Shown: piece by piece, positions 997 to 27,770 of the stretch | How the letters are laid out: every line of letters starts with the position of its first letter | Numbering within the stretch: position 1 is the stretch's first letter | Source: Candidatus Eiseniibacteriota bacterium | GTDB lineage: Bacteria; Eisenbacteria; RBG-16-71-46; CAVPCR01 | Assembly (NCBI GenBank): GCA_963823555.1 | Contig: CAWGMA010000004.1 | Coordinates: 1 to 64,000 of the forward strand | DNA length: 64,000 bases | Direction: 5' to 3' | Position numbers and translations under genes: made by a program | Notes under the pieces: generated by a model | Databases searched by the model: none | Told to the model about the DNA's origin: nothing | What the model saw: only the letters and a program-made list of their open reading frames with translations

Positions 997-1010
997 GAGG
1001 GTTCCTGACC

Positions 1011-3262: not shown

Positions 3263-3340
3263 CGAGACCTGCCCCGGGCCTGAGGGGCTGTTGATGATGA
3301 AGGAGTGGACTTGGGGAATAGCTCCCCTGCCGAGGCTGGC

Positions 3341-3405: not shown

Positions 3406-3475
3406 GCAGGCGACCGGAAGACGATGTGATCGATGAGGGGAACCGGGAGGGCCTGGCTTCTCCTCGGCGGAGAAG

Positions 3476-4323: not shown

Positions 4324-4385
4324 TAAAGCCGCCCGAATCCGGCGACGACTTGCCAGGCGCGGAAGAGCACCTGCACGCGGCGACG
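4324..4385 (-). pseudogene. Middle fragment of a small tyrosine recombinase, cut by IS481
   Basis: RRRVQVLFRAWQVVAGFGRLY; recalled as the segment just before the HxLRH box in the 'DLFLAQRFARHASPLTT' integrase family (not searched). Confidence 0.5.
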
Positions 4386-4395
4386 TGTGCGGTTG

Positions 4396-5538: not shown

Positions 5539-5637
5539 GCCTCCTCCGTGGGCAATTGAGCCCGATAGTTCCAAGCGTTTGGACTCAGGGGAAGAATCCC
5601 GGGGGGATCCCCATCGCCGTCCGCGCATAGCGGTGGC

Positions 5638-6920: not shown

Positions 6921-6952
6921 GAGACCCCGACGGAGAGATCCGCCGGGGTCTC
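6921..6952. terminator. GC-rich hairpin in ORF-poor spacer
   Basis: GAGACCCCGACGGA-GAGA-TCCGCCGGGGTCTC stem-loop. Confidence 0.4.
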
Positions 6953-7260
6953 GTCGTTAGGCGAGAAATGGCACCGGGTTGCGGGTGCAAGCGCGGCGGG
7001 TGCGACTCTCTGTTCGCGAACAGTGCTAGTTGGCGGCCCGAGATGTGGACCTCGAAATGGGCCCGTGGGACCCCAAACTCTCTCCCTCTCGGCGACAGTC
7101 GGAGAACTGGTTAACAAGGGTGGTCTACTCGGGGGGCCAAGTAGGACGGGTTTCGAAGTCCCAACCCGGTCAGCAGCCGCTTCTTCCGCCATGGGGTCAG
7201 GCACACTGTCTTGCCCTATCGATCAGTAGTCCCTCCCTTGCAACCCGTTAGCGTCTCCGC

Positions 7261-8772: not shown

Positions 8773-8781
8773 GGGTCACCT

Positions 8782-10263: not shown

Positions 10264-10797
10264 GGCCTTACCTCTTGTGAGCGGTGGCGCTGCCTTGCCG
10301 CTTATGCAGGTACCGCAGGCGTGGGTGGGTAGCCAGGGAAGACTCTCCGCTAGCCAATGGCAGAGATGAAGCCGAATTGCTGGCGCAGGGTGGCGCCCGC
10401 TACGACAAGAGCCCATGGCTGTCCCTACCCCCCTCTAGGGGCGTCGGGCCTCATCGCCGAGCGGCTTGGCGCCGGGACCCTCGGGGTCGCCGGGTGGTGA
10501 GGTCAGAGCCTCTATCCTCCAGCGCAGAGCCAGAGGACTCGGCAAGAATTCGGCTGCATACATCGTACCGATCATCGACCGCGTGGGCGTTGGCAGGACA
10601 AGATGATATTTAGTCTTAGGTTGAGATCTATCCCCCTCCCTTGATCGCCCGACCGCGCCAACCGGGTTTTAGTCATCCTGGCTCTCACCGTCTCGGCTGA
10701 GCTGACATTTCGACAGCCGATGTGGCGAGAAGCGTCGTAGGCGTAGGTGTCCGGAATCTCGATCGTGTTGCCGAACACCAGCTACGGCAACCGCCCC

Positions 10798-10950
10798 TCA
10801 ACACACCATCCCCCTCAGCCTCTCAAACATCTCCTCGTCGCTCACATGGGTATAGGCGACGGTCGTGAGCGGACTCGCGTGCCGGGCGAACCGCTGGGCG
10901 AGGAAGAGATCCCGCGTGGCCCGATACACGGCGGTCACGGCGGTGTGCCT
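10798..10950 (-). pseudogene. 3' half (153 nt) of small tyrosine recombinase, copy A, interrupted by RIT
   Basis: RHTAVTAVYRATRDLFLAQRFARHASPLTTVAYTHVSDEEMFERLRGMVC*; contains the catalytic R, H and Y boxes. Confidence 0.8.
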
Positions 10951-11117
10951 CTTATGCCGCGCTCGGCATAACCGGCATTATGCCGCGCTCCGGATTATGC
11001 CGAGGCGACTTGGGAAGTGCTTGTCTGGCCAGCAGTTAGCGCGGCGGAAGTGCATCACGACGCGGCATAAGCCTAACGTCTCCTCCACCTGGTCGCAGAG
11101 CCAGAGGAGGAGGAGAT

Positions 11118-12332
11118 ATGAGAGGAGGATTTCGCTTCGGCCACCCGGTGGGCCGTTGGTATCGCATCGGCCCCTTGAGCGACTATCTCGATGAGTACGC
11201 CGCACGTCTCGGCGAGTTGCAGTACACTCGGGAGACGGCAGTACATAAGATCAAGAGTCGGTGGCTCAGTCACCAACGACTCGATGTTCATAGCCTCGAC
11301 GATCACCTGATCGCGAAGTTCTTTCGTCAACGACGGCAACGACGCGACACTGCTTGTTCTGGTGACATGGCGGCGGTCCGTCTGCTGCAGGATCTGCTGC
11401 GCGATCGTGGCATTCTGCCTGAGCTTCCGCGACCGGAGGATCGTCGGCACGCCACCGAGATCGCCTTCGAGCAGTACCTGCGGGAAGAGCGGCGCGTATC
11501 GCCGGCGACACTACTCAACACATTGCCATTCGTGCATCGCTTTCTCGCCGACCTCTTTGGTGCGACGCCGGTCTGCCTCGCCAGTGTGTCTCCATCGGAC
11601 ATCACGCATTTCGTTCTCCAACACGCCCGAACCATGAGCCCTGCTCGCGCGAAGCTCCTGGCAGGGGCCCTGCGCTCCTACTTTCGCTTTCTCTACCTTC
11701 GCGCGGAGATCACCACGGATCTCGCTGCGGTCGTGCCCACCGTACCGGGTTGGCGACTCACCAGCGTTCCGAAGTCGATCGACCCGCACAAAGTCGAAGT
11801 CCTGCTGAAGAGCTGCAACCGACGAACACCGACGGGTCGACGCGATTACGCGATCCTGCTGCTGCTGGCCCGTCTCGGCCTGAGAGGCGGGGAAGTGACT
11901 GGCATGACCTTGGACGATATCGATTGGGAGGCTGGCGAGCTCGTCGTGCGTGGCAAGGGACCTCGCCAAGACCGCCTGCCGATTCCCAAGGACGTTGGTG
12001 AGGCCTTGGTCGCCTACTTGCGTGATGGCCGGCCTCGCTGCGCGTCACGACATGTATTCCTCACTTCGCGTGCACCCGTTCACGAGCTTCGCCGTGCTGT
12101 TGGCGCCATCGTCCAGCGTGCAGTCACACGCGCCGGCATCGACGCACCCCACAAGGGATCCCACCTCTTACGCCACTCCCTGGCCGTTCGGATGCTTCAA
12201 CGGGGAGCGTCGCTTGGTGAGATCGGCGATATCCTGCGGCATCGCCATCTGGACACGACCGCGATCTACGCCAAGGTTGACCTGAACGCTTTGAGATCTC
12301 TCGCTCAGCCGTGGCCGGGAGGTGAAGCATGA
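11118..12332 (+). CDS. RIT tyrosine recombinase A
   Basis: GRRDYAILLLLARLGLRGGEV, HLLRHSLA, LRHRHLDTTAIYAKVD..LAQPWP; start uncertain. Confidence 0.88.
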   Translation: MRGGFRFGHPVGRWYRIGPLSDYLDEYAARLGELQYTRETAVHKIKSRWLSHQRLDVHSLDDHLIAKFFRQRRQRRDTACSGDMAAVRLLQDLLRDRGILPELPRPEDRRHATEIAFEQYLREERRVSPATLLNTLPFVHRFLADLFGATPVCLASVSPSDITHFVLQHARTMSPARAKLLAGALRSYFRFLYLRAEITTDLAAVVPTVPGWRLTSVPKSIDPHKVEVLLKSCNRRTPTGRRDYAILLLLARLGLRGGEVTGMTLDDIDWEAGELVVRGKGPRQDRLPIPKDVGEALVAYLRDGRPRCASRHVFLTSRAPVHELRRAVGAIVQRAVTRAGIDAPHKGSHLLRHSLAVRMLQRGASLGEIGDILRHRHLDTTAIYAKVDLNALRSLAQPWPGGEA

Positions 12333-13258
12333 GCATCCTCCTCGCCGCCGTCGATGAGTACCTGAACCTTCGGCGATGCCTCGGTTTCAAGCTTGCCGCC
12401 GAGGGAAAGCTGCTCTCGGACTTCGTCTCCTTCGCGGAACATCAGGGAGCGAGCCACATCACCAGCGAGCTCGCCCTGCGCTGGGCCACCCTGCCGGCGG
12501 GTGCCTCGCCAGCCCACTGGGCAAGCCGCCTGCGGATGGTACGCCTGTTCGCGCAGCACTGGAGTGCTACGGACCCACGCACCGAGGTCCCGCCAGCAGG
12601 GTTGCTTCCCTATCACTATCATAGGAAGCGTCCGTACATCTTCACTCCGGCCGAGATCCAGCATCTTATCGACGCAGCCTGGACGCTCCAGAGCGCCAGA
12701 GGGCTGCGGCCCTGGACCTACCACACGGCATTCGGGCTGGTAGCGGTGACGGGCATGCGGGCCGGAGAACTCATCAACCTCGATCGAGATGACGTGGACC
12801 TCGAACGCGGTGTCCTTCGCATCCGCCTGGCCAAGTTCGGCAAGTCCCGACTGCTCCCGGTACATCCGTCGACTCAAGCCGTTCTCCAGCGTTATGCCCG
12901 CTATCGCGATCAGGTCTTCCCCAAGCCGCACACGCCGAGCTTCTTCCTTTCCGACCAAGGCCGTCGCCTCGCGTGGTCGATTCTACGCTGGACGTTCGTG
13001 AAGCTATCGATCCAGACTGGCCTGCGGGCAGCCAAGGCTCGACGTGGCCCGCGCGTGCACGACCTCCGCCATGCCTTTGCCGTGCACACCGTGCTCGGTT
13101 GGTACCGATCGGGCGCGAACGTCGAACAGCGCCTCCCCACGTTGGCCACCTACCTCGGTCACGCCCATGTAACCGACACGTACTGGTACCTCTCGGCGAT
13201 TCCCGAACTGCTGGCACTCGCATCAGCAAGGCTGGAGGAAGGAGACCAGCAGCCATGA
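12329..13258 (+). CDS. RIT tyrosine recombinase B
   Basis: YLNLRRCLGFKL, TGMRAGE, KFGKSRLLP, HDLRHAFA, YLGHAHVTDTYWYL; ATGA overlap with A. Confidence 0.92.
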   Translation: MSILLAAVDEYLNLRRCLGFKLAAEGKLLSDFVSFAEHQGASHITSELALRWATLPAGASPAHWASRLRMVRLFAQHWSATDPRTEVPPAGLLPYHYHRKRPYIFTPAEIQHLIDAAWTLQSARGLRPWTYHTAFGLVAVTGMRAGELINLDRDDVDLERGVLRIRLAKFGKSRLLPVHPSTQAVLQRYARYRDQVFPKPHTPSFFLSDQGRRLAWSILRWTFVKLSIQTGLRAAKARRGPRVHDLRHAFAVHTVLGWYRSGANVEQRLPTLATYLGHAHVTDTYWYLSAIPELLALASARLEEGDQQP

Positions 13259-14250
13259 CTACGCCCAACCTGGCCAACCTGCTCGAGACCTTCTTTACCG
13301 ATCGTCTCATGCGCCAGCGACAGGCGAGCCCCCACACCATCGCCAGCTACCGAGATTCGTTCCACCTACTCCTCGTCTTCGCGCAGCAGCGACTGAAGAA
13401 GGCCCCCTCCACCCTTGCTCTCACCGACATCGACGCACCACTCATTGGAGCCTTCCTCGACAGCTTGGAGAAGACCCGCGGCAGCAGTTCGCGAACCCGC
13501 AACACGCGACTGGCCGCCATCCGTTCATTCTTCCGCTTCGCCGCCTTCACCGTGCCCGAGCACAGTGCCTTGATTCAGCGCGTCTTGGCAATGCCCACCA
13601 GGCGCTATGACCGGCGGCCTATCGAGTTCTTGACACGGCCTGAGATTGCCGCCCTGCTCGCCGCCCCTCCTCAAACTACCTGGCATGGTCGCCGCGATCG
13701 GACGCTCCTGCTCGTGGCGGTCCAGACCGGCCTGCGGGTCTCCGAACTCATCAGCTTGCGCTGCCAAGACGTTGTACTCGGCGCCGGTGCTCACGTGTGT
13801 TGCCTCGGGAAGGGACGTAAGGAGCGATGCACGCCGCTGCGGCGTGACGCCACCATGGCATTGGCACAGTGGTTCCGCGAGCGGCAGGGCCAGCCTTCGG
13901 ATCCGCTGTTTCCCAACCAACGTGGCGACCCACTCAGCCGCGATGGGGTCGAGCATCTGCTTGCCAAGCACCTGACCCAGGCACGAGTCGTGTGCCCGTC
14001 ACTACGGCACAAGCAGGTCTCGCCGCACGTGCTCCGGCACACCGCCGCCATGGAGTTGCTGCAGCACGGCGTCGACCGATCGGTGATTGCGCTCTGGCTC
14101 GGTCATGAGTCGGTCGAGACAACTCAGATGTACTTGCAGGCGAATCTCGCGATGAAGGAGCTGGCTCTGGCCAAGACGACTCCGCTCAACGTGCCGGTGG
14201 GGCGCTACCGACCCGACGACCACCTCCTGGCCTTCCTCAGGAGCCTCTGA
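13255..14250 (+). CDS. RIT tyrosine recombinase C
   Basis: FFTDRLMRQRQASPHTIASYRD, TGLRVSEL, PHVLRHTAA, WLGHESVETTQMY; ATGA overlap with B. Confidence 0.92.
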   Translation: MTTPNLANLLETFFTDRLMRQRQASPHTIASYRDSFHLLLVFAQQRLKKAPSTLALTDIDAPLIGAFLDSLEKTRGSSSRTRNTRLAAIRSFFRFAAFTVPEHSALIQRVLAMPTRRYDRRPIEFLTRPEIAALLAAPPQTTWHGRRDRTLLLVAVQTGLRVSELISLRCQDVVLGAGAHVCCLGKGRKERCTPLRRDATMALAQWFRERQGQPSDPLFPNQRGDPLSRDGVEHLLAKHLTQARVVCPSLRHKQVSPHVLRHTAAMELLQHGVDRSVIALWLGHESVETTQMYLQANLAMKELALAKTTPLNVPVGRYRPDDHLLAFLRSL

Positions 14251-14360
14251 TTATGCCGACTCAGGCCGCCCACTCGACTCGAGATCCACCGACTCCTTTC
14301 AACCGACTCGGCATAATCCGGAGCGCGGCATAATGCCTCTTATGCCGCGCTCGGCATAAG

Positions 14361-14513
14361 AGGCACAGCGCCGTGTCGATGGTCTACCGTGCGACCCGCG
14401 ACCTCTTCCTCGCCCAGCGGTTCGCCCGCCACGCGAGCCCGCTCACCACCACCGTGTATATCTATCCATCGGACGAGGAGATGTTCGAGCGGCTGAGAGG
14501 GATGGAGTGCTGA
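14361..14513 (+). pseudogene. 3' half (153 nt) of small tyrosine recombinase, copy B, interrupted by RIT
   Basis: RHSAVSMVYRATRDLFLAQRFARHASPLTTTVYIYPSDEEMFERLRGMEC*; diverged paralog of copy A. Confidence 0.8.
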
Positions 14514-14553
14514 GGGAGGTTGGACTTCGGCCCCCAGGTTCCCAAGCAACCAC

Positions 14554-15870
14554 TCATCGTGGCAAAAGAACGACTTTGCTCACCGCTGAACTTCCTTCTC
14601 CGCGAAGGCGGAGGAAGTAGACGCCAGGCCGAGCCGCGTCGCCCGGCTGCCAGAGGTACGGCGGTGTTCCGGGCCGCACGATGTCCACGACGCGACCCTG
14701 CAGATCGTAGATCTCCAGTAATGGGTTCTGGATGGTCGCGGCGTACGCGATCTCAGCCTGATAACGCATAGGGTTTGGTGTCACCGAGAGCCGAAGCACG
14801 GTCGACCCCGCCTCGGGGACGCCCTGGGACTCGCACAGACCCAACGCACCGATGAGTCCGCACCCGGGCGGGGAGTTTGCCGGCAGACAGGGGGAGTCGG
14901 GCCGCAGGTGAAAGTCCAAACCCGCAGGATCACAGAACAGGGGATCCGCCGAGAAGTTGCCGTTGATTCCTCCCTGTCCAGCGCAGTCACCACGCCAGTC
15001 CTGTCCGTTTCCCCAGACGTTGTTGCAACCAATGACCGGGATGGCTTGGAACATCTGGCAGTCTACGCCATACTCGAGGTCGTAAACGACGATATTGCCG
15101 GTAAACTCGCACGGTTTGTACGTCGTAAACCCCAGAGCGATGGACCGCGGGAGCGGAACTTCGTGCACTATCGTGTTATTCCTTATGAGGCCGCCACGGA
15201 TCTGGACGGCTGTGTTATTCACGATACCGTTCCCTACTATAATGTTGCCCGAAAACTCAAAGGCGCCGACGTCAACGATGAATAGGGAATTGCAATTCAG
15301 ACCATTATAGCGGATTACGTTTCTCCGAAAGAAGCCGTCGCCCTGGAGAGCGGCGGCATCTGCGTTCTCATTGTACTGGATCAGATTATCCTCAACCGTA
15401 GATTGAATGCCGGCGAAGATCCCCGCGGCCCCTCCAAAGGCCTCATTATACTCGACAATGTTGTTTCGGATCTTCGCACGGCCTCCTCTGTCGATGTCAA
15501 CGTCGATATGAATCCCGCCGGCCAACCAGCCACCCCCATAGTAGCCGTTGGTGATCCGGAAGCCCTGAATCGTTACCCCTTCGACCGTTACCGGGGTAAA
15601 GACTACAGTATATAGTCCGCCTGCATCGATCGTCGTCACGTCTGGGCCTTCTTCGCTCATAAGCACGACGTCGTTGTCGTAAATGGTGACCCGCTCCTCA
15701 TACAGGCCCGGAGCGACGAGCACCGTGTCGCCGACGGTGCAAGCAATCAGGGCAGCTTGGATGGTGGGAAACTGACTAGGGACCCGAAACGTCGCCCCGA
15801 GCCCCGAGGCAGGAGTCATGAGCAGAGCAAGCGTGCAGGCAGCATTGAGACACCCGTAACGAGACTTCAT
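14554..15870 (-). CDS. Secreted parallel beta-helix protein with FlgD/T9SS-like C-terminal domain
   Basis: RBS GGAGGTG, ATG 15870, signal peptide, RVPSQFPTIQAAL, NFSADPLFC..CGLIGAL, PNP..IYDLQGRVV..GVYFLRL. Confidence 0.85.
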   Translation of the reverse strand: MKSRYGCLNAACTLALLMTPASGLGATFRVPSQFPTIQAALIACTVGDTVLVAPGLYEERVTIYDNDVVLMSEEGPDVTTIDAGGLYTVVFTPVTVEGVTIQGFRITNGYYGGGWLAGGIHIDVDIDRGGRAKIRNNIVEYNEAFGGAAGIFAGIQSTVEDNLIQYNENADAAALQGDGFFRRNVIRYNGLNCNSLFIVDVGAFEFSGNIIVGNGIVNNTAVQIRGGLIRNNTIVHEVPLPRSIALGFTTYKPCEFTGNIVVYDLEYGVDCQMFQAIPVIGCNNVWGNGQDWRGDCAGQGGINGNFSADPLFCDPAGLDFHLRPDSPCLPANSPPGCGLIGALGLCESQGVPEAGSTVLRLSVTPNPMRYQAEIAYAATIQNPLLEIYDLQGRVVDIVRPGTPPYLWQPGDAARPGVYFLRLRGEGSSAVSKVVLLPR

Positions 15871-15974
15871 GCTGCACCTCCTGATGGTCCCTTGACCATT
15901 CATACTGCCATGGGTGATGTTGGGCCAAGAGGGGGTGGCATACGCGGATCGCCACCCCCTCAGCCGGCTCCCAT

Positions 15975-16185
15975 CTACTTGAGGGTCAACATCTTCCCGT
16001 TCGCTACCTCGTCGCCGGCCCGCAGCCGGTAGATGTAGACACCCGAAGACACCGCCTCCCCCGAGGTCGTGCGCCCGTCCCACACGAAGTCATGCGCGCC
16101 GGACTCGAGAGGCCCGTGATAGAGCCTCCGGATGAGCCGCCCCTCCACCGAGTAGACGTCCAGCGAGACCGGAGCTTTCCGATCG
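15975..16185 (-). pseudogene. Orphan FlgD-Ig C-terminal domain fragment
   Basis: DRKAPVSLDVYSVEGRLIRRLYHGPLESGAHDFVWDGRTTSGEAVSSGVYIYRLRAGDEVANGKMLTLK*, out of frame with the upstream ORF. Confidence 0.75.
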
Positions 16186-16761
16186 AAAGGCCTCGTATGA
16201 CCAGGTCTTGGATCCGCGGAGATGGATTGTGACTAGGCCTGTCGTTTGACGGGGAAGAAAGCCGTACTCGACAGTCTGCAGGAATATGCCGTACTCAGGG
16301 TGTAGGTCCAGAAGAAAAATGCCCCTTTGTCCAACCTGTGGCGGTCGTGTGTCGTAGTAAATCGCATGGCTACACCCGCCGGGGGGGGCAACTGGGAGTT
16401 CCTCGGGCAGTGCTAACGTCGTCACTAACAAGTACGTATCGGCAACCGTACCTTTGATCTCGCGAAGGTGGCCTAGGCGGAGTTCCGTTACCCATATGCA
16501 TCCGGTCGCAGACGCATGAGTGACAGGATTCGCTTCGACAACCTCTCCCTCAATGATGAAGTCAAAGCGTGCCGCCGTCACCTGGGCTGTCTGATTGAGA
16601 CTCAAGTCCGCGGATCCACCAAACACGTCCGCCCGCGCTTGACCGGAGAGAAGGAGGCTGGTCATTACGCCCAAGATTAGCCCCAGGTAGGCGACGGAAC
16701 ATAGTGGGACACCACATAATTGCACCCGTGGGCGCATTCGAAGCAGACTTACTGATCTCAT
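16090..16761 (-). CDS. Secreted TIMP/OB-fold-like hypothetical protein, probably 3'-truncated
   Basis: Hydrophobic N-terminus ending QARA, FDFIIEGEVVE..LREIKG..VGQRGIFLL pattern like 24584-25516; last codons overlap the FlgD fragment; start uncertain. Confidence 0.55.
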   Translation of the reverse strand: MRSVSLLRMRPRVQLCGVPLCSVAYLGLILGVMTSLLLSGQARADVFGGSADLSLNQTAQVTAARFDFIIEGEVVEANPVTHASATGCIWVTELRLGHLREIKGTVADTYLLVTTLALPEELPVAPPGGCSHAIYYDTRPPQVGQRGIFLLDLHPEYGIFLQTVEYGFLPRQTTGLVTIHLRGSKTWSYEAFRSESSGLAGRLLGGGAAHPEALSRASRVRRA

Positions 16762-16917
16762 TGATGGAAGGTGCACCAGCAAGAACAGCGGGGAATGACA
16801 GCTTCTGATGGAGTCGCCCTTCGAGTAACTAGCAAGAGCTTTCTTGGTGCGCGACATGCTCGAGAACCCCCTTCGACAGCGATAAAGGCTTAGCCGATTT
16901 CGGGCTTCGGCGCCAGG

Positions 16918-17100
16918 ACGCCTCTTTCTGCCCATGACCCGGTTTCCGATGCCCCTTTTTGGCCGTTTCCGAGGAGGGGCATGCCCCAAAACGGCCATGT
17001 CCGGGAAGGCCGATGCCCCAAATCGGCCATGTCCGCCCGAGGGGATGCCCCATTTTGGCCGTTTGGGCGGGAGGGGATGCCCCAGGTTGTCGGCTGCCCC
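16918..17100. repeat. Tandem array of 32-bp units, consensus ATGCCCC-(A/T-rich 5)-GGCC-N4-N12
   Basis: ATGCCCC at 16949, 16981, 17013, 17045 and 17077, exactly 32 bp apart; degenerate unit at 16918. Confidence 0.9.
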
Positions 17101-17105
17101 GGCGC

Positions 17106-18470
17106 TCACCTTAGATAGATGAACTTGACCGCGTCCCCGACCGCGCCGCCATCCATCCTCGCGAAGTAGACGCCCGGTGGTGCCGACGCCCCCGGCGTCC
17201 AGACCCAATGGCCGCCAGCACCGGTCAGCCGGTCAATCAGCCGGCCATGCGAGTCGAAGACCGAGAGCACGCGCGGGCCGACGCCAGGGAAAGCAAACTC
17301 GGCGACACCGCGCACGGGGTTCGGGGCCACGCTCAGGTGTGCCGTGACGGGCGGAGCGTCGCCTGTGGCCACGTCGGCAGCGCCGCAGGCGACCGGCACC
17401 GCACCGATTAGACCGCAGCCCGTCGGGGAGTTCTCCGGCGCGCATGGCGAATCGGCGTGCAGAGCAAGGTCGTCGTTCGACGGATCACAGAACATGGGAT
17501 CTTCGCTGAAGTTGCCCTGGATGCCGTTGAACCCACTGAGGCAATACTCATAATTACCCACATTGCCATAGACATCGCAGCAGAAGACATCGACTGCCGT
17601 CCCTCCGTAGCAGTGCACAGCAAAACCCCACTCATTGAAGCCAAGAATGGTATTGGAGAGGAGCAGTGAGGCCTCCTCCATCACGATCATCGCTTCCCCC
17701 AAGTTGTGATGGAGAGTGCAGCTTTCCAACGTGAGATCCACTCGGAACATGCGTACTGCAACACCAGTCTGCCCGATGTTGTCGTCTAAGACGCACGAGG
17801 TGAGCAGCATGCCTCCGCCAAAACCGGCACCCACCGCGCCACCAAAGACCCCGAAGTTCTCTCTCATTGTGCACGACCGAAGCGTGAGATTCGACAGATA
17901 GCCATCGACGGCACCGCCGTATGTCGCCGAGTTCTCCACGAAGGTGCAGTTCTCGATCACGGTGTTGGACCAAGCGCATGAAATGGCGCCGCCGTTGCCC
18001 CCTGGGGGAGCGATGCCATTGTTCACCTGATTGCGGAAGAAATGGCAGTTACGGATCGTCGGTGAACTGGACTGGCAGAGGATGGCGCCACCGCAGCCCT
18101 CAGGGCAGTAACGTTCGATCAATTGTCCGTTGCGGATGGCGAACCCTTGAACAACGGAGGCAGCCGTCTCGCCACTGTGAAAGCTCAGCGCACGATGCGG
18201 GTCGGACGGGGAGCCCCCGCAGTCGATGTTGGTCTGCTCCGGGCCGGCCTCGGACATGAGGACAAGGTCGACGCCAGCGAAGTCGAGGTCCCGATTCCCG
18301 TCGCCCGTGTAAGTGCCCGCGGCGACCAGAACAGTGTCGCCGATACTCGCCGCGTCGATGCCGGCCTGGATCGTCGGTTGATCAGCGGGAACGCGGATCG
18401 TCGCGGGATGAACAGTGGCGGGAACGGCCAGGAGCAGGCCGAGGACGAAAGCGACCTTGCGCAGCACCAT
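17106..18470 (-). CDS. Secreted parallel beta-helix protein with FlgD/T9SS-like C-terminal domain
   Basis: RBS GAGGAGG, ATG 18470, signal peptide, TIRVPADQPTIQAGID, NFSEDPMFC..CGLIGA, APNPVR..VFDSHGRLI..GVYFARM. Confidence 0.88.
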   Translation of the reverse strand: MVLRKVAFVLGLLLAVPATVHPATIRVPADQPTIQAGIDAASIGDTVLVAAGTYTGDGNRDLDFAGVDLVLMSEAGPEQTNIDCGGSPSDPHRALSFHSGETAASVVQGFAIRNGQLIERYCPEGCGGAILCQSSSPTIRNCHFFRNQVNNGIAPPGGNGGAISCAWSNTVIENCTFVENSATYGGAVDGYLSNLTLRSCTMRENFGVFGGAVGAGFGGGMLLTSCVLDDNIGQTGVAVRMFRVDLTLESCTLHHNLGEAMIVMEEASLLLSNTILGFNEWGFAVHCYGGTAVDVFCCDVYGNVGNYEYCLSGFNGIQGNFSEDPMFCDPSNDDLALHADSPCAPENSPTGCGLIGAVPVACGAADVATGDAPPVTAHLSVAPNPVRGVAEFAFPGVGPRVLSVFDSHGRLIDRLTGAGGHWVWTPGASAPPGVYFARMDGGAVGDAVKFIYLR

Positions 18471-18511
18471 GGTGGGGGCCCTCCTCGATGGCAGCCGGTG
18501 AGGACCCGCCC

Positions 18512-18520
18512 ATTCTACCA
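18512..18520 (-). promoter_or_regulatory. Candidate extended -10 promoter (TGGTAGAAT) overlapping the terminase stop
   Basis: TGnTAGAAT about 40 bp upstream of cargo ATG 18470. Confidence 0.5.
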
Positions 18521-19934
18521 CCGTCCTTGCCGCCACGGAAACCCCGCCCTCGTGCGGTGCCTGACGCCGACGCCCGGCCAAGGCCGCTCGTGGAACGGCA
18601 ATCCCTTCAGCGGTCGCCCGAGATTGATGACCCTGACTCTCGGCCCACCGTGCCGCTCGGCCGCCATCCATGCGTAGGTGAACGCCAAGCTGAAATGGTC
18701 TTCGCCAGTCCTGACGTACCGATACTTCTTCGCGCCCGTCTCCTCGTCCTCGTCCAGCACCTTGGCATCTGCCGCCATGTGTCGAGCGAAGATCTCGACG
18801 ATGGGCACGCGGCGCGGCAGGACGACCCTCTTGTCACGGATAGCCGCACGTGAAGCGTCGAGCGCCTCGGTGCGGTTCACCTGGACGGTATGCGCCTCCC
18901 GGTCCCACTTCATCTCGCCGCGCTGATGCTCGTTGAAGAAGCACATGAACACATGCCCACGGTGACGCTTGGTGAAGTCCCGGGTGGCATGGGTCTCGGG
19001 AAGGCCGTCGATCACACAGCGCGACACGCGGAAGCGCTTCATCAGGGCATCCAGGTCGCTGAACTCGTGACAGACGGCCAGGTGGACCAGGCGGACCTGG
19101 GGCGAGCCGTCGCCGTCCATGGTCCCGCTCTCGTGCCTCAAGATCACGACATGGAAGGCGCTCCCCGTGTCGATCCCGGCCCAGTACGTGCACTTCTGCT
19201 GAGCTTCCTCTTCCATCGTGTCCTCGCTGCAGAGAGCAAGCACGGTGGACACATCGAGGCGCCGTTCCAGGTCAGCCCACGCGATTCCGACCTTCAGGTT
19301 GTAGAAGCGATCGGGGAAGCGCGTCGTCCGATACTCATGAAGGATCTCGCCGGGGTCGACCTTGGCGCTGAACAACTGGCTGATGCGGTAACCGTGGATC
19401 GGGCGATCGGGATGCTCAGGCACCCACTCCCCCGCGGCGAGATCGAACTCGGCTGAGCACTTGGGACACGCACGGTAGAATGTGCCATCGGGTCTCGGCA
19501 GGATGACCTTCACTTCCTCGCCCAGCTTGGTCGGGAACTCTCGGTCAAGGGCCGTCCAGTGGCCACAGGCTGGGCACTTGAGGGTCCAGTGCCTCTGGTC
19601 CGACGCCTGGTAACTCTCATCGACGCCGTAGTCGGGCAGCGACGGGTTCGACAGTTCTATGATGCGCTTGTAGTCCGAGTGCGCGAGTCTCTCTTTGGCC
19701 ATCGCCTTCGCGTCGGGCGTCGCCTCATCCAACTCGTCGAAGACAACCATGTCCGCCGGGACCGACTTCATGCCGACGCTCGACTGCATCCCGCGCAAGT
19801 AGAGATGCGCCTCGCCGATCCGCTTGAGTCCGGCGGTATCGGTGTCGGTCATCATCTTCGCCAGGAACGGGTTGTCGGCTAAGAGCGGCGATACCCTCGT
19901 CTTCGAGAAGTCGATGACATCGGTGCGGGTCGGG
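18515..19934 (-). pseudogene. GpA-like phage terminase large subunit, 5'-truncated by an IS91-like ori end
   Basis: Frame open from PTRTDVIDFSKTRV; Walker B VVFDELDE, LSNPS, SDQRHW..CPAC, CPKC, GYRISQL, nuclease GIDTG, CVIDGLPE, DHFSLA; N-terminal Walker A region missing. Confidence 0.8.
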
Positions 19935-20401
19935 GCGCATAAGAGGTTTCATCGGGCTTTTGGCCTGACCTCAAGTGTAGGAGGGGGGATTGGGGAAGGG
20001 AAGGACGGTGTTGGGCGGGGGCGTGGTGGGTGCATGGCGCCGCGATGGCACGGCGGGGCGATGGCATCGGGCGTCGGTGGGCGCGGCGTACTGCGACCGC
20101 ACGGAGGTCTCCCATCACTCCGGCGGGATGCGCGGAGCGTCGCGGGGTTCGCTGCCGTTTTGGGGCGGGCCGGTGGTGGTGGCATGGCTTGCCCATAGCC
20201 CCGTCACCAGCGCGGGTGAGGTGTCACGACGGTGGCGGCCGGGCCGATGGAGACCGCGAGGCGGGGGGTGCGGGGCGCTCACCAACATCGTCCACGCGAT
20301 CGTGGTCGAGCGGCGCTGCCTCATCCCACATCTCAAGCGGGAGCTCGGTTGCGTCGGCTCGCGCCAGCGCTGGTGGTGTGGTGGGCAGGCGGAGATGGCG
20401 G
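19935..20401 (-). mobile_element. IS91/ISCR-like element, partial copy 1 (last part of tnp plus ori end)
   Basis: Near-identical to 25592-26058; ends ...GATGAAACCTCTTATGCGC on the minus strand. Confidence 0.9.
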
Positions 20402-20473
20402 GTACCTCCCTCCCCTCTCGGGATTTCGAGGCGCGACGGACCATTCTCCGTCTTGGAGCCACAGCATCCTTAC

Positions 20474-22792
20474 TCATGGCAAGGAAATCAGACGTGCAGC
20501 CGCTGACTGCCGCTTCCAGGTGATCCCTGCGAAGTAGGTCCCGGCCGCAGCGCGCCGTCCGCGAGCGTCACGCCCATCCCATGTAGCAAGATGCGTCCCT
20601 CCATCCAGCCGATCCGAGATCAGCGACCGGATGAGGCGCCCCTGGGGGTTGTAGATCCCGACTCGGACCTCTCCCGCCGATGGCAAGACGAATGAAAACT
20701 GGGCTCGGCCACCGTGCGCAACAACTCCCCCAACGGCGGTGATCTCCAGGCGCGGCACGCCCCCGACCCCAGGCTCCGGAGTGGGGAGCCCTGTCGTTGG
20801 CGTACACTGGAGGGGCAACACCTGCAGCCCTCCCTCCCAGCATGCCACGTAGACCGCAGACTCGCTGACGGCCACGTCGATTGCTTTCCCGGGAAGATCA
20901 GCTCCGCCGACGAACGCCGGCGCCTCTGGATCGGCCACGTCCACGACGTACAGCCCACCTTGTGAACCGGCCACATACGCAATAGACCCGTCAACCACTA
21001 CATCGTATATCTCCGTTGGTAGTTGGACCTGTCCTACGGCGAACGGGTTCGTAGGGTCCGAGATGTCGAAGATCTCGAGTCGTCCCCTACTCGAATAGAG
21101 ACCGGGCAAAGCTTCTGCCAGGTATAGGTGATTCCCGATAACGTCGACCCCGAGTGCTAGATATGGGAACTCTATTCCCGCACTACCGATGCTTTGCATC
21201 TTCCAGGGCTGAGATACGTCGTATACGGCCAGTCCCCGAAAGTCTGCAGCACAAAAGGCGACACCACCTCTCACAACCAATCTTTGCAACTGATCAGATG
21301 TCTGCAAGTGCTGTACAAGCACGGGCGAACTCGGATTCGCGATGTCCACGGCTATCAACCCCCCACCTGGACCGTTCGCGTACGCACCGAACAGGATGGA
21401 ACCCTCTAACGTCATGTTCGGGCAGCCCACGCCTGGCAGGGTTGACAACACGATCGGGTCCTCCGGGTTGGAGATGTCAGCCACTCGGAGATTGCCTCTG
21501 CCTTCGAAATAGAGGTAGGGAGCGCGCCATGCCATCCCCCACCCTTGATCTACGGGTATCTCGGCCAACACCGTGGGACCTCCGGGGTACTCGAGGTCTA
21601 TCACTCTGACTGCCCCGCCAGGGAACTGAGCATCCATCGTGTGCGCGTAGCGCCCATCGACCGCGACATTCACGGCCTCGTGCTGTACGCTCGCAAGCGG
21701 TGTCACCCCCTTCACCGATGAGATGTCGATCACATGGAGCCCGGTGTAGTAGTCCGCAAGGTACGCTCGATTCCCCTCCGCGGCGATGTCGATAGCCTCA
21801 AGGTCGACTGAGCTGATCGGGATCGGCGTGGTGGGGTCTGAGGGATCATAGACCCTCGTCCCTCGGCCGGTAGAAACGAGTACATGTCCCCCTGTCACCG
21901 CCACCGCACTTGGGGATAGCAGCGGGGCCAGCAGCGCGGCTCCCACTGGAAGCGGGTCCGCCGGATTCGACACGTCAATGACGAAGAGGCCCGCGCCCCA
22001 CCCCCGCACCGCCACATAGGCATAGGTCGTGTTCACGCCGTCCGCCGCCACGGTCAGCGCCACATCGATCGAACTCCCGTAATCACCGATGTCACCCGTG
22101 CCAAGCAAGACGGGCGCCCCGGGGTCCACCACGTCCACCACGTGCAATCCCGCGGACCCTCCGGCCACGTAGGCGAGGCCGTTCCGCACCATGATCCCCT
22201 GCGCCTCGCCTGGGAGGATGAGGTGGCTCTCCACAACCGGGGCCTCCGGCACCGACATATCGATGACGTATAGGTCCCCCGCATCCGCAGCCACAAAGGC
22301 GCGGCCCCCTTCCGAGGCCACCGCGAACAGCTGCTCCTGCAGCTCGATCATCCCCACCAGCCACGGGAACTGCGGCACCGCCACGTCGACGGCATAGACG
22401 GCTCCGAAGGTCCCGACGACGTAGGCGTACCGCCCGGCCACCGCCACGCTGACCGGAGTTCCCGGAAGCCCCACGCCTCCGACCACAAGAGGAGCCGACG
22501 GCGACGCCACATCGATGACGCTCAGCCCCTCCGCATGAGCCACGTAGGCCACTTCACCCTGGACCGCCACTCCTAGCACCGTTGCCCCGATCGGGGCCGT
22601 GCCCAACCAGTGGATGTAGGAGCCGTAGTCGACACCAGCGCCGAACCCCGGTCGGGTGGCGAGTGCGACCAAGAACGCGATCTCGCCCAGGAGCCAGCGG
22701 GCGCGCGGCCGCAAAGATCGTGGCTGGCAGGCGCCCTCAGGAACACGCCCATCCGGCCCCTCAGACCCTGCCAGCCACATCTGCGCATTCAT
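20474..22792 (-). CDS. Secreted LVIVD-repeat beta-propeller protein with FlgD-Ig C-terminal domain
   Basis: Many AYVA..GLxVIDVSxPxxP repeats; IYNPQGRLIR..WDGRDARG..GTYF. Confidence 0.88.
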   Translation of the reverse strand: MNAQMWLAGSEGPDGRVPEGACQPRSLRPRARWLLGEIAFLVALATRPGFGAGVDYGSYIHWLGTAPIGATVLGVAVQGEVAYVAHAEGLSVIDVASPSAPLVVGGVGLPGTPVSVAVAGRYAYVVGTFGAVYAVDVAVPQFPWLVGMIELQEQLFAVASEGGRAFVAADAGDLYVIDMSVPEAPVVESHLILPGEAQGIMVRNGLAYVAGGSAGLHVVDVVDPGAPVLLGTGDIGDYGSSIDVALTVAADGVNTTYAYVAVRGWGAGLFVIDVSNPADPLPVGAALLAPLLSPSAVAVTGGHVLVSTGRGTRVYDPSDPTTPIPISSVDLEAIDIAAEGNRAYLADYYTGLHVIDISSVKGVTPLASVQHEAVNVAVDGRYAHTMDAQFPGGAVRVIDLEYPGGPTVLAEIPVDQGWGMAWRAPYLYFEGRGNLRVADISNPEDPIVLSTLPGVGCPNMTLEGSILFGAYANGPGGGLIAVDIANPSSPVLVQHLQTSDQLQRLVVRGGVAFCAADFRGLAVYDVSQPWKMQSIGSAGIEFPYLALGVDVIGNHLYLAEALPGLYSSRGRLEIFDISDPTNPFAVGQVQLPTEIYDVVVDGSIAYVAGSQGGLYVVDVADPEAPAFVGGADLPGKAIDVAVSESAVYVACWEGGLQVLPLQCTPTTGLPTPEPGVGGVPRLEITAVGGVVAHGGRAQFSFVLPSAGEVRVGIYNPQGRLIRSLISDRLDGGTHLATWDGRDARGRRAAAGTYFAGITWKRQSAAARLISLP

Positions 22793-22807
22793 CTCGATTT
22801 CCTCGCG

Positions 22808-23142
22808 TCACCGCACGATGACGAACTTCTCGGTCCGGGTGCTCTCACCCACTCCCGTCAACCGAGCGAAATAGACACCGCTCGCCACGAGCATACCGCG
22901 CTCGTCGCGACCGTTCCACGTCACATCGACGACCCTTCCCTGGAGGCCCTTCGCCACCATCGCGACCTGCCGCCCTGTGACATCATAGATCGTAAGTTGA
23001 TTGGGACCGCCGCCGGCCGCATCCACCACGAACGAGGCTCCCGTCGACGCTCCTCTGCCGACAACCGCAAGCGTTGGAGATGGCACCGGTGCAGCAGCCA
23101 TCATGTCATCGCCGGCGGGCGAAGCCACCCTGAAGCCGCCAC
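22808..23142 (-). pseudogene. 3' fragment (FlgD-Ig domain) of a secreted protein cut by the IS91-like ori end
   Basis: IYDVTGRQV..VTWNGRDERGMLVASGVYFARL..KFVIVR*; begins directly at the ori junction. Confidence 0.8.
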
Positions 23143-24556
23143 GCGCATAAGAGGTTTCATCGGGCTTTTGGCCTGACCTCAAGTGTAGGAGGGGGGATTG
23201 GGGAAGGGAAGGACGGCGTTGGGCGGGGGCGTGGTGGGTGCATGGCGCCGCGATGGCACGGCGGGGCGATGGCATCGGCCCATCATTGAGCGCGGCGTGC
23301 TGCAAGGGCACGGAGGTCTCCCATCACTCCGGCGGGATGCGCGGAGCGTCGCGGGGTTCGCTGCCGTTTTGGGGCGGGCCGGTGGTGGTGGCATGGCTTG
23401 CCCATAGCCCCGTCACCAGCGCGGGTGAGGTGTCACGACGGTGGCGGCCGGGCCGATGGAGACCGCGAGGCGGGGGGTGCGGGGCGCTCACCAACATCGT
23501 CCACGCGATCGTGGTCGAGCGGCGCTGCCTCATCCCACATCTCAAGCGGGAGCTCGGTTGCGTCGGCTCGCGCCAGCGCTGGTGGTGTGGTGGGCAGGCG
23601 GAGATGGCGGAGGATCGAGGTCAGCACCTTGGGGTCGGAGATGAGGGCGAGGACGGCCATGGCGGAGGTGCAGCGGGGACAGCGCAGGGCGTCGATGTGG
23701 AACACGCGGCAGAGCAGCTGGGCCCAGGGGAGCGAGCGTCGACGGCGGGGCATGGTGGTGGCGGGCGCAGGCGCCGCAAGCGGCGCGGTCGGAGTGAGCT
23801 CGGCTTCGGGGTCACGGTGCGGCTGATCGCTGGCGGGTGGGCCCGGCGTGAGCGCGAGCGGTGGTGGTGGCGGTGGTGGTAACCGCGGGCGCCAGCGCGA
23901 GCGGTTGGCGAAGGAACCGTGATAGCGGACGAGATGGCTGTAGGGGGCGGGGACCAGAGCGGCGAGTCGGCGCAGGAGATCGAGGGGCTCGAGCACGAGC
24001 GCGGTCGCACCCTGGGCGTGGGGCCAGGGTCGGCGCAGGTGGTAGACGATGCGACCGTCGGTGCGGCGTGCGAGGCGGCCCTGGGCGAAGGGAGCGCGCA
24101 GGCCGTAGCGGCAGAGGCGCTCGAGGGCAAGCCGATCGCCGGCGGCGACGGCGTGGGCGGCGTGAAGGGAGAAGCCGGCAACCTTGGCGCAGAGCGGTTT
24201 GGGTTCGGGCTCCCGGTCTTCGGGAAGCGCGAGCTGGGGTGAGGGAAGGGGTGGTGCGACGGCGGCGGCGAGGTCGCTCTGGAGTGCGGCGGCGATCGCC
24301 TCGAGGAGCGCCGCGGTCTCGCTCTCGTCATCGGTCCGCCGCTCGATAACGGCGGTGAGGCGGCGGGCGATCTTGAGGGTGAGGGCCTCGATCTCGGCGG
24401 TGGTGGGTGTGGGGAGCGGTACGAAGTCGAGCGGGTCACCATCGGTGCGGGGGACGAAGAGCCCATCGGGGAGGAGGCAGTGAACGTGGGGGTGGAGGTT
24501 GAGGGCGCCGCCGAAGCGCTGGACGAAGGAGACCGCTCCCGACTGCCCGCCCGCGA
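23143..24556 (-). mobile_element. IS91/ISCR-like element, partial copy 2 (catalytic 3' part of tnp plus ori end)
   Basis: Near-identical to 25592-27007; homology stops at GACTGCCCGCCCGCGA; ORF 23433-24587 is an in-frame fusion with an 11-codon foreign start. Confidence 0.92.
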
Positions 24557-24583
24557 GCATGATAGCCAAGCGTGCTGTCGGCT

Positions 24584-25516
24584 TCATTGTCGTCCTCCCT
24601 CGGTCTTTATAGAAGCTTTGAGGGAAGTCAGCGAGACTGTCCTGCCAGGGCCAATAGCAGTTCCGTCGACCACTTCGTAGCGCCCTGCAACGCTCGCCAT
24701 TAACTCATACTGCGACGGATCGCGGCGCGACTGGCGAAGAAACAGCAAAGCACGCTTGCCCACCAAATCCCTAAGATGGCTAGCTTTAGCAACAACAGAT
24801 ATTACCGAGCCCGAGACAGAACCCGAAAGCACTTCGTCAATCCTACAGTCATAGAGAGTAGCGGATTGAGGCCTTCCTGCATCCAAAGGAGATCCGGTCA
24901 AGGGCGAGCATATGACGACAGCAGCAGCGCTCTTGGCCAATACCTCGGGGCTGAGACACGCCATATCAGCCATAACTCTTTCCTTAATATCCTCCTCGGT
25001 CAATGAGTTCCAACCCTTGACATGACTGGCTGCCATCCCACTTCCGTCTACTACGGCTCCGTTTCTAAAGCGAAAGTAGTGGCCATGGACCCGGTAACCA
25101 CCATGCACTCGATCCTGAGACAGGTAGACTAGTACTCGATCGCCCTCCTTATAGGAATAGAATATGAAGCCAACGATAAAATGACTTGTCCGCTTGCCGC
25201 TCTTAGGGTCACTTGTGGTTCCGCCTGGGGCGAAGACTGTTGCCATTGAACCGACCCCCACGTCTCCCTTGAGGGTCTCCTGGACTTCGATTTCGAACCG
25301 CGTATGGACTATCCCGCCGCCGCCCACGTCTGCTTCTACCAGTGCCTTGCTTCGGATGAGGCCGATTATTATGGCGTCAGCAGTCGCTGTGGCTAGCTCA
25401 TCTGCTAGTCTCCCGTGAGTGGCGATCGGCTCGTCTAGAGACGCGCAATCAAGAGAATCGGAGGCCACCGCTCCCTGGGCACATAGGAGAAAGAGAACTG
25501 CTAAAGTCCCTCGCAT
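24584..25516 (-). CDS. Secreted tandem TIMP/OB-fold-like hypothetical protein (cargo)
   Basis: RBS GAGGAG, signal peptide, two ADAIIIG..VQETLKG..GDRVLVYL-type repeats; visibly lower GC. Confidence 0.75.
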   Translation of the reverse strand: MRGTLAVLFLLCAQGAVASDSLDCASLDEPIATHGRLADELATATADAIIIGLIRSKALVEADVGGGGIVHTRFEIEVQETLKGDVGVGSMATVFAPGGTTSDPKSGKRTSHFIVGFIFYSYKEGDRVLVYLSQDRVHGGYRVHGHYFRFRNGAVVDGSGMAASHVKGWNSLTEEDIKERVMADMACLSPEVLAKSAAAVVICSPLTGSPLDAGRPQSATLYDCRIDEVLSGSVSGSVISVVAKASHLRDLVGKRALLFLRQSRRDPSQYELMASVAGRYEVVDGTAIGPGRTVSLTSLKASIKTEGGRQ

Positions 25517-25591
25517 TGTTACTCCTCAATCTCCACATCCAGAACGGCGTGCCAGTCATTCGACTCAGAAAGACTAAGCCCTGAGACCGAT

Positions 25592-27770
25592 GCGCATAAG
25601 AGGTTTCATCGGGCTTTTGGCCTGACCTCAAGTGTAGGAGGGGGGATTGGGGAAGGGAAGGACGGCGTTGGGTGGGGGCGTGGTGGGTGCATGGCGCCGC
25701 GATGGCACGGCGGGGCGATGGCATCGGGCGTCGGTGGGCGCGGCGTACTGCGACCGCACGGAGGTCTCCCATCACTCCGGCGGGATGCGCGGAGCGTCGC
25801 GGGGTTCGCTGCCGTTTTGGGGCGGGCCGGTGGTGGTGGCATGGCTTGCCCATAGCCCCGTCACCAGCGCGGGTGAGGCGTCACGACGGTGGCGGCCGGG
25901 CCGATGGAGACCGCGAGGCGGGGGGTGCGGGGCGCTCACCAACATCGTCCACGCGATCGTGGTCGAGCGGCGCTGCCTCATCCCACATCTCAAGCGGGAG
26001 CTCGGTTGCGTCGGCTCGCGCCAGCGCTGGTGGTGCGGTGGGCAGGCGGAGATGGCGGAGGATCGAGGTCAGCACCTTGGGGTCGGAGATGAGGGCGAGG
26101 ACGGCCATGGCGGAGGTGCAGCGGGGACAGCGCAGGGCGTCGAGGTGGAACACGCGGCAGAGCAGCTGGGCCCAGGGGAGCGAGCGTCGACGGCGGGGCA
26201 TGGTGGTGGCGGGTGCAGGCGCCGCAAGCGGTGCGGTCGGAGTGAGCTCGGCTTCGGGGTCACGGTGCGGCTGATCGCTGGCGGGTGGGCCCGGCGTGAG
26301 CGCGAGCGGTGGCGGTGGTGGTGGTGGTGGTAACCGCGGGCGCCAGCGCGAGCGGTTGGCGAAGGCACCGTGATAGCGGACGAGATGGCTGTAGGGGGCG
26401 GGGACCAGAGCGGCGAGTCGGCGCAGGAGATCGAGGGGCTCGAGTACGAGCGAGGTCGCACCCTGGGCGTGGGGCCAGGGTCGGCGCAGGTGGTAGACGA
26501 TGCGACCGTCGGTGCGGCGTGCGAGGCGGCCCTGGGCGAAGGGAGCGCGCAGGCCGTAGCGGCAGAGGCGCTCGAGGGCAAGCCGATCGCCGGCGGCGAC
26601 GGCGTGGGCGGCGTGAAGGGAGAAGCCGGCAACCTTGGCGCAGAGCGGTTTGGGTTCGGGCTCCCGGTCTTCGGGAAGCGCGAGCTGGGGTGAGGGAAGG
26701 GGTGGTGCGACGGCGGCGGCGAGGTCGCTCTGGAGTGCGGCGGCGATCGCCTCGAGAAGCGCCGCGGTCTCGCTCTCGTCATCGGTCCGCCGCTCGATAA
26801 CGGCGGTGAGGCGGCGGGCGATCTTGAGGGTGAGGGCCTCGATCTCGGCGGTGGTGGGTGTGGGGAGCGGTACGAAGTCGAGCGGGTCACCATCGGTGCG
26901 GGGGACGAAGAGCCCATCGGGGAGGAGGCAGTGAACGTGGGGGTGGAGGTTGAGGGCGCCGCCGAAGCGCTGGACGAAGGAGACCGCTCCCGACTGCCCG
27001 CCCGCGATGCCGAGCTCGCGGCCGCGACGGCGTTGCCAGGCGAAGACGGTGCGCAGGAAGGTGGCGAGAAGCGCGCTGAACAGCGCGCGGTCGACGGCGA
27101 GACGGAAGCGGAGCACCCAGGGAAAGGTCAGCACCCACTGGCGGTAGGGAGCCTCTGGGAGGAGCTGGTCGACGAGGAAGGCGGCGGTGTCGGCCATGCG
27201 GCGGCCAAAGCAGCTCGGACAGAGGCGCCCCTTGCAGGAGAAGGCGACCAGGCGTTCGCAGCCGCAGCGTGGACAGCGCAGGCGGGCAAAGCCGTGGGCG
27301 AGGATGCCGCAGTCGAGGTAGCGGCGGAAGGCGCGCTCGATGAACGGCGGGTAGCCCTCGCCGTCGTGGCGGGAGCCGGCGGCGAGGAAGGTCTCGAGGT
27401 GCTCGCGGACCACGGTATGAAGGACGGTGGACTCGGGTTCGCGGCGGCGGTAGGCGGGTGGGAGTGGAGCCCGAGCCGCGCCCGGTCGGTGCTCGTAGGC
27501 GAGCGGGGGGAGCGCGGTGGTGGCGGATGGAGTGCGGGTGCGTGAGCGCCGGGGCCGCTTCGGAGCGGCGGCCATGTCCCGCCGTCAGGGCAGGATCGGT
27601 GCCGGAGAGCGTCGGGCCGGGCCTCAGGCGCGAGGCAGGACGGAGTCAGCGCGCGGCGGCGAGGTCAAGCCCCCGAACGATGTCATCGCCCGCGCCCGCA
27701 CCCGCGCTACCCGACAACCCCGTGGCCACAACCGTCCACGGGTGATCAGCCGCTCATCAGCCTCGTATCT
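25592..27770 (-). mobile_element. IS91/ISCR-like rolling-circle element, apparently full-length; ter-end position approximate
   Basis: Complete transposase plus about 290 bp of 3' non-coding DNA ending in an ori-like TGAAACCTCTTATGCGC. Confidence 0.85.
25881..27575 (-). CDS. IS91/ISCR-family HUH transposase
   Basis: YLDCGILAHGFARLRCPRC..AFSCKGRLCPSC zinc domain, RQWVLTFP, QRFGGALNLHPHVH (HUH), GFSLHA, LCRYGLR (single Tyr), WAQLLCRVF..CPRC. Confidence 0.93.
   Translation of the reverse strand: MAAAPKRPRRSRTRTPSATTALPPLAYEHRPGAARAPLPPAYRRREPESTVLHTVVREHLETFLAAGSRHDGEGYPPFIERAFRRYLDCGILAHGFARLRCPRCGCERLVAFSCKGRLCPSCFGRRMADTAAFLVDQLLPEAPYRQWVLTFPWVLRFRLAVDRALFSALLATFLRTVFAWQRRRGRELGIAGGQSGAVSFVQRFGGALNLHPHVHCLLPDGLFVPRTDGDPLDFVPLPTPTTAEIEALTLKIARRLTAVIERRTDDESETAALLEAIAAALQSDLAAAVAPPLPSPQLALPEDREPEPKPLCAKVAGFSLHAAHAVAAGDRLALERLCRYGLRAPFAQGRLARRTDGRIVYHLRRPWPHAQGATSLVLEPLDLLRRLAALVPAPYSHLVRYHGAFANRSRWRPRLPPPPPPPPLALTPGPPASDQPHRDPEAELTPTAPLAAPAPATTMPRRRRSLPWAQLLCRVFHLDALRCPRCTSAMAVLALISDPKVLTSILRHLRLPTAPPALARADATELPLEMWDEAAPLDHDRVDDVGERPAPPASRSPSARPPPS

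Follow-up and report, generated by a model that had tools for sequence, protein, structure and literature searches.

The 64,000-nucleotide stretch of DNA analysed here (the window, at the start of contig C4 of this genome) contains a genuine tandem array in which a full copy of an ISCR-like element and two copies truncated at the 5' end alternate with cut pieces of unrelated DNA (table 1). We hypothesize, with a confidence that stops just short of an even chance and by comparison of sequences, that this array grew in place at a nicked ori. Read along the minus strand, the order is full copy A, a 1.0-kb cargo (cargo 1), copy B, a 2.7-kb cargo (cargo 2), copy C and a cut terminase. Copy B corresponds to A 27007-25592 at 98.0% identity and copy C to A 26058-25592 at 99.1% identity, transposase residues 1-79 being covered by copy A only in the whole genome, and all three copies share an identical last base (...CTTATGCGC) followed by unrelated flanks. 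Coordinates, identities and domains agree with the preliminary description, which had drawn a full transposase gene, two 3' copies, two cargoes and a truncated terminase with a common ori end and differing 5' breakpoints: A, B and C stop at one base, and the breaks of B and C differ. Two of its details need correction, as the ori ends are not nested (the copies lie in tandem, none inside another) and the left limit that it set at 27770 finds no counterpart in relatives, where no sequence left of 27604 is conserved.

Repeat-induced misassembly of this long-read metagenome bin is a very improbable source of the layout. Substitutions distinguish the copies, an equal layout is found in the related genomes G003 and G001, and short-read unitigs from X1, which may be the source sample, pass the junctions at 19935, 20401 and 23143 exactly (three of the five internal junctions) with 0 mismatches, though they extend 30 letters into the repeat, one below the bridging rule, and the order of the units is taken from the assembly. 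The junctions at 24556 and 25592 are absent among the X1 matches listed, none of which spans the whole array, and no record among those listed covers it from end to end, as a misassembly would have it; runs X2, X6 and X11 yielded nothing beyond scattered pieces. The contig start likewise gives this explanation some ground, since it overlaps the error-rich tail of contig C2: C4:1-9414 is repeated, inverted, in C2:713925-725716, which connects to C2 through an IS3-like copy that lacks a target duplication and which may reflect a rearranged subpopulation, a duplication or a misjoin. The tail leads into a copy truncated at A 27339 and co-oriented with A to C, and a fourth co-oriented copy probably lies just past the contig start; with such a copy, positions 1-19934 would be a third cargo of about 20 kb, starting at the cut terminase.

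Several other features were observed in these regions. Terminase pieces lie face to face at both ends of the 20-kb stretch (1-240 and 18515-19934); a terminase homologue at C3:592257 retains the 5' part, and at C3:579-594 kb a related terminase occurs in a serine-recombinase-like element adjoining an island of secreted-type genes. Three consecutive tyrosine recombinases (11118-14250) are enclosed by 213-nt inverted repeats in an element at 10795-14516 that we take to be RIT-like, and positions 3259-4257 presumably hold a broken IS481-like transposase. Two X1 loose ends inside copy B have flanks that are absent from the assembly and possibly mark extra stubs in the population.

The transposase of copy A places the element in the broad IS91 family. 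Both Y2_Tnp (PF04986, 87 bits) and Zn_Tnp_IS91 (PF14319, 68 bits) are matched above cut-off, giving an HUH transposase with zinc-binding and Y2_Tnp domains, and 3' of the gene the element has a sharp oriIS end without inverted repeats or target duplication. The protein shares 37% identity with that of ISVsa3 (ISCR2) and 35% with that of ISCR1, aligns column for column with them on the HUH and LERLCRY motifs, and has one catalytic tyrosine with an arginine four residues ahead of it (R336-x-x-x-Y340). The NCBIfam scores fall below cut-off (266 against 925 bits for ISCR clade Ia, NF052416; 96 against 125 bits for IS91), and in a quick tree 46 relatives branch apart from ISVsa3 and ISCR1. On these comparisons, the element belongs to a new ISCR-like clade of known architecture, outside the named ISCR clades. 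A sequence search for PDB relatives of the transposase returned none.

Ten of the 11 tips in the genome end in TATGCGC with unrelated flanks, and the same tip is found in G003 and relatives; a strict pattern recovers it in 7/77 related loci, one of them doubtful and many on contigs too short. This oriIS consensus is followed by variable DNA, as in ISCR elements, and the ISCR-like identity and common oriIS claimed at the outset are supported by 35-37% amino acid identity, the single tyrosine and the homologous tip. None of 10 tips adjoins an IS91-type target tetranucleotide (CTTG, GTTC, GTCC, CTCG). Comparison with relatives revealed no conserved terIS, the genome having one full copy, and a hairpin at 27719-27742 is unconserved in them. 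No empty site was found, and the congener's orthologous sigma gene precedes unrelated genes. Two readings of the tip were rejected: GCGC is not a target site, as it is absent from the terminase homologue and from both donors, and the match to the ISCR oriIS rules out an attC or RIT end.

Table 1. Features of the array on the window (coordinates in nucleotides; range order as annotated).
Feature	Position	Strand	Basis
Copy A, full ISCR-like element, upstream motif to ori tip; left end undefined	25592..27604	-	
HUH transposase, 564 aa: zinc-binding domain, H213-V-H215, single Tyr340	25881..27575	-	Pfam, alignment to ISVsa3 and ISCR1
Sigma54-type -24/-12 motif (GG-N10-GC), 14 nt ahead of the transposase ATG; predicted to be a near-leaderless promoter	27590..27604	-	
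Ori tip of A (TGAAACCTCTTATGCGC), homologous to ISCR oriIS	25592..25608	-	
Cargo 1, 1,035 bp, GC 0.54	24557..25591	.	
Copy B, 1,414 bp, 5'-truncated with intact ori; allelic mosaic	24556-23143	-	
Cargo 2, 2,741 bp, GC 0.64	20402..23142	-	
3' piece of FlgD/T9SS-tail gene (cargo 2)	23142-22808	-	
772-aa LVIVD-repeat, FlgD-tail gene (cargo 2)	22792-20474	-	
Copy C, 467 bp, 5'-truncated, ori intact	20401-19935	-	
Terminase large subunit (gpA ATPase), cut at C's tip	18515..19934	-	Pfam

The cargoes are cut operon pieces, as first described. Cargo 1, whose GC3 is 0.54 against a host median of 0.83, comprises a 310-aa ORF (25516-24584) with a signal-peptide-like start and the first 10 codons of a coupled gene, the ATG of which overlaps the preceding stop after GAGGGAGG; the cargo breaks off in codon 11, where the coupled gene is fused in frame to transposase residue 190. 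The fusion ORF (24587-23433) in copy B keeps the catalytic domain and lacks the zinc domain. Such a zinc-domain-less transposase behind a captured RBS may yield a trans-acting product, and the distant copy with the same break as copy B has an in-frame ATG too. Domain scans (Pfam, NCBIfam) assigned no family to the cargo 1 ORF, and its protein has no homologue in 60 relatives and none near full length in the protein database; Atlas look-alikes fall into clusters with a weak TIMP/NTR lead. Cargo 2 begins mid-gene and terminates 3 nt past GGAGGGAGG, an RBS-like run. Neither cargo has a second copy in the genome.

The suggestion that the array accumulates secreted-protein genes fared less well. 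A crude secretion-tail pattern that fails to pick up the FlgD tail of cargo 2 flags 253 of the 3,498 genes in the genome; such genes are equally common in positions 1-19934 (5/13), in an element-free island (12/46) and in an integron array (5/18), and rare in the C2 array (1/21). The secreted-type genes mirror the local mobile pool and lend no support to selection by the element. The array itself is not an integron: the genome's attC-like repeat is matched 22 times at C3:411-433 kb, once weakly on C1 and nowhere in the window. The C3 region concerned (G000 C3:409234-434400) encodes an integron-like integrase, which has the same sigma54-type motif as the transposase gene 15 nt before its start, and carries 22 attC-like repeats with toxin-antitoxin-like and secreted-type cassettes.

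Donor sequences were located in part, and they support the view of the cargoes as captured pieces. Cargo 2 occurs element-free and 96% identical in X5 and X14, the runs of two samples from a single study, where the DNA continues beyond 23142 with other letters and the ORF stays open across the junction; the letters past 23142 are absent from this genome and differ from the end of cargo 1. This continuation indicates that cargo 2 was cut exactly at B's tip and that B is no clean insertion. Apart from this genome itself (G000), neither 60 relatives nor 205 phylum genomes contain a cargo 2 donor, and donors of two G003 cargoes were absent from G003, G004 and G001. The second instance is a 216-bp stub at C2:692934-693149, both flanks of which occur in the congener G001 at 96-98% identity on separate contigs, each mid-gene, with no element DNA at these donor stretches in the 60 kb fetched. 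A clean insertion of this stub into one membrane gene was rejected. The tip side has 0 shared bases (one extra letter) and the 5' break has 2, after GTTC. Core genes near the stub flanks are only 72-78% identical to G001; within C2:688-698 kb several kilobases are 95-99% identical to scattered G001 loci against core genes at about 75%, which points to recent interspecies exchange. Taken together, the cargo 2 donors and the stub that joins two G001 contigs identify the copies as capture seams and not clean insertions.

Across the genome we count 11 ori ends, of which one is weak and another has a worn tip, and a single full gene. All 10 truncated copies that retain an end keep the ori side and 0 keep the 5' end alone, while a few internal scraps keep neither. 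The copies cluster in the C4 window, at C4:506-508 kb and at C2:675-703 kb, a pattern seen in 0/200,000 random placements genome-wide and given P 0.015 if placements are confined to 250 kb of islands. Their 5' breaks recur at 27007/27008 and 25807/25810 with differing flanks (P 0.006 under a uniform and 0.03 under a skewed null), and copy B's 5' break lies within 1 nt of that of a distant copy. A, B and C have private alleles in common; B is a patchwork that includes a 10-site block, and all four allele combinations occur at sites 26214 and 26453, from which it follows that the copies recombine. The patchwork, with the break shared with a distant copy, implies that B is not simply a fresh copy of A. 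All tips on C4 and the four C2 array tips run in the same direction relative to GC skew, the copy at the C2 tail being the exception, so that co-orientation by itself is weak evidence here. Stubs of a second ISCR-like element, co-oriented and with tip repeats of their own, adjoin copies of the first at C2:700957-701205 and 698358-698436; a full copy of this second element is found at G001 C4:436-438 kb.

Could such a pattern arise if short ori-bearing copies had inserted independently into an island and later, unrelated deletions or rearrangements had by chance fused their flanks, with no capture at all? We consider this unlikely. Passages of the IS801 survey do attribute most genomic IS801 fragments to reorganisation (PMC3189936), co-orientation may mirror the replication bias seen in the GC-skew comparison, and the clustering is only modest once confined to islands. 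However, deletions at random would not have left the ori side in place in 10/10 copies, donors are cut exactly at the tip, clusters on opposite strands are adjacent in G003, and copies group by array.

A survey of other copies, the route that the preliminary description had pointed to, bears out that arrays of this kind recur: G003 and G001 hold like arrays. In G003 (same order; 64% amino acid identity) the 23 ori-end matches fall into co-oriented clusters, some of which adjoin clusters on the opposite strand. One array there reads full copy, 1.9 kb, full copy, 12.9 kb, 1,327-bp stub, 4.9 kb and 1,845-bp stub, and a small contig of the same genome has that array's outer flanks around a single copy, such small G003 contigs possibly being assembly variants. 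Over 1,250 nt, G003 copies differ at 3-11 positions within an array versus 12-46 to another array. A 5'-complete copy stands upstream in the present array and in three G003 clusters. In G001, truncated copies precede the full copy; two of them share break and flank and represent a recombinational duplication. G003 also contains 5' fragments that lack the ori, as well as a full copy preceded by a deleted one.

The relatives further contain short repeats of the tip itself. A tandem repeat of the element's own last 6 or 33 bases follows 8 of the 16 G003 tips caught by the pattern (background, 1/1110 sites); some of these repeats are nested with 10-base ones, and two of the eight represent the same junction. 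One G003 flank shows one tip repeat on one contig and five on another. The second element in G001 (40% amino acid identity) has 7-nt non-palindromic tip repeats as well as a 431-nt stub directly after a tip, with no cargo, and ISVsa3 in the plasmid locus L213 has a 103-nt tip repeat. In the present genome, 0 of the 9 tips caught carry an exact tandem repeat, and one has an imperfect 12-nt repeat.

Growth in place would account for these structures as follows. The transposase would nick the ori tip of a resident copy, and the freed flank end would be extended a variable distance into the element before stalling. Direct closure of the nick would leave a cargo-free tip repeat; closure through a foreign piece, one end of which is joined to the tip and the other to the stalled strand, would produce the series copy, cargo, shorter copy. 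Recombination between copies evidently follows, mixing alleles, duplicating units and collapsing arrays. One process is the simplest explanation of stubs that range from 6 to 1,845 nt, are without exception tip-anchored and may or may not come with cargo, and the cargo-free repeats, together with one junction that differs in repeat number, favour growth in place over circles. Four further features suggest the same: donors are unlinked to the neighbouring cargo and cut exactly at the tip; the ori side is retained in 10/10 copies, a polarity that the circle model predicts as well; copies are closer within arrays than between them; and the 5'-complete copy stands upstream here and in three G003 clusters. 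Against growth in place stand the 0/9 exact tip repeats in this genome, the patchwork of copy B with its break common to a distant copy, and the truncated upstream copies of G001 together with the ori-less 5' fragments and deleted upstream copy of G003. The short tip repeats could also be a side reaction unrelated to capture.

The main competitor, which we rate as a real possibility though not a probable one, is a circle model in which a prematurely ended copy lands beside the cargo, and rolling-circle read-through closes cargo and stub into a circle, which then enters a resident copy by recombination. It gives the same layout and polarity, and the same product for long stubs. Recombination between copies is demonstrated by the four-gamete pair (26214, 26453) and the 10-site block in B; an IS91-like tetranucleotide precedes 3/9 breaks versus 3% per site (a post hoc count); the recurrent breaks resemble the fixed mini-derivatives in passages on IS801 (PMC3189936); and circles and tandem arrays appear in passages on ISCR2 (PMC7190383) and on an environmental IS91 (PMC5737581). 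The model requires, however, a first clean insertion at the donor, and none is found for the stubs with traceable flanks (B, C and the 216-bp stub), the G001 donor stretches being without element DNA; a single crossover with the break-sharing copy, moreover, predicts its alleles in A's 3' part, where they are absent. Of the rolling-circle transposition with homologous recombination originally proposed, the recombination between copies stands, and the circle route keeps the rank of a possibility; the cargo-free 6-33-nt repeats of relatives should be beyond the reach of circles and homologous recombination.

If growth in place is correct, ISCR-type elements might more generally be in-place capture devices, a bolder proposition that we offer only tentatively and think rather less probable than its negation. 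The nicked ori would serve as the landing site, a single-tyrosine HUH enzyme would splice arbitrary fragments with no need for a cargo site, and the 5'-truncated scars would record the order of capture, the enzyme being switched on, in this clade, from a near-leaderless sigma54 promoter and not by SOS. As to the predicted promoter, among the 53 distinct related loci whose ATG could be assigned, 28 have GG at one fixed position, and in 28/28 of these GC follows twelve bases on, 14 nt before the ATG; the GG-N10-GC motif is scattered across several branches of the transposase tree and has a form that we take to be that of a sigma54 promoter. The host has rpoN, and similar motifs precede other host genes. 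As the motif is partly palindromic, it may instead be an operator or an end signal. It is not the host LexA box, which would be expected before lexA and recA, where the motif is absent. Ten loci on other transposase branches (L042, L047, L050, L054, L046, L051, L080, L084, L122 and L125) have other fixed motifs before the ATG, either TTCGAATAC or TGAAACA-N-TCGATAT, which presumably resemble near-leaderless ECF-sigma promoters. Our literature search found no report of in-place growth or of sigma54 control of such elements, which is weak evidence of novelty. Accounts by Toleman in 2006, Schleinitz in 2010 and Partridge in 2018 may already cover tip repeats or stubs.

ISCR elements are vehicles for many resistance genes, and their transposition of adjacent DNA is called undemonstrated in passages of PMC6218425 (2018) and PMC9376610 (2022). 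The layout itself is already known; the value of the present array is in donor junctions and tip repeats that make ISCR capture testable. Element-free donors cut at the tip and a ladder of cargo-free repeats provide a concrete, RecA-independent alternative to the circle model.

The closest known systems are ISCR2/ISVsa3 and ISCR1, with which the element has the LERLCRY motif in common, a homologous oriIS (CTTCCTATAC against CCTCTTATGC) and the lack of a target motif after the tip. ISCR transposases are reportedly, after Toleman's 2006 account, IS91-like with one tyrosine, matched here by Tyr340. Co-oriented copies with different cargo after each ori also occur in L213, which has four. The present array is unlike these in that its downstream copies are cut within the transposase gene, its cargo includes no resistance genes, and a sigma54-type motif stands where ISVsa3 and ISCR1 have a CTGT-N8-ACAG box, which we assume to be LexA-type. 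A variable region follows the ISCR1 oriIS in passages of PMC6218425. With IS91, IS801 and IS1294 the element shares the Y2_Tnp and zinc domains and an ori downstream of the gene, and, with IS801, ori-bearing 5'-truncated derivatives, those of IS801 being of 229, 360 and 679 nt in passages of PMC3189936. It differs from IS91, compared by description, in having one catalytic tyrosine rather than two (Y249/Y253 in passages of PMC5714925), and from all three in that a GTTC/CTTG-type target (CTTG, GTTC, GTCC and CTCG being the target tetranucleotides in passages of PMC13181058) lies beside none of the tips and a conserved terIS was not found among relatives. The IS91-built sdpA cluster of Sphingobium herbicidovorans MH is likewise an array of environmental origin that combines several IS91 ends with captured genes; in passages of PMC5737581, however, it is attributed to circles and tandem duplication of repeated units, whereas the cargoes here are different from one another and unique in the genome.
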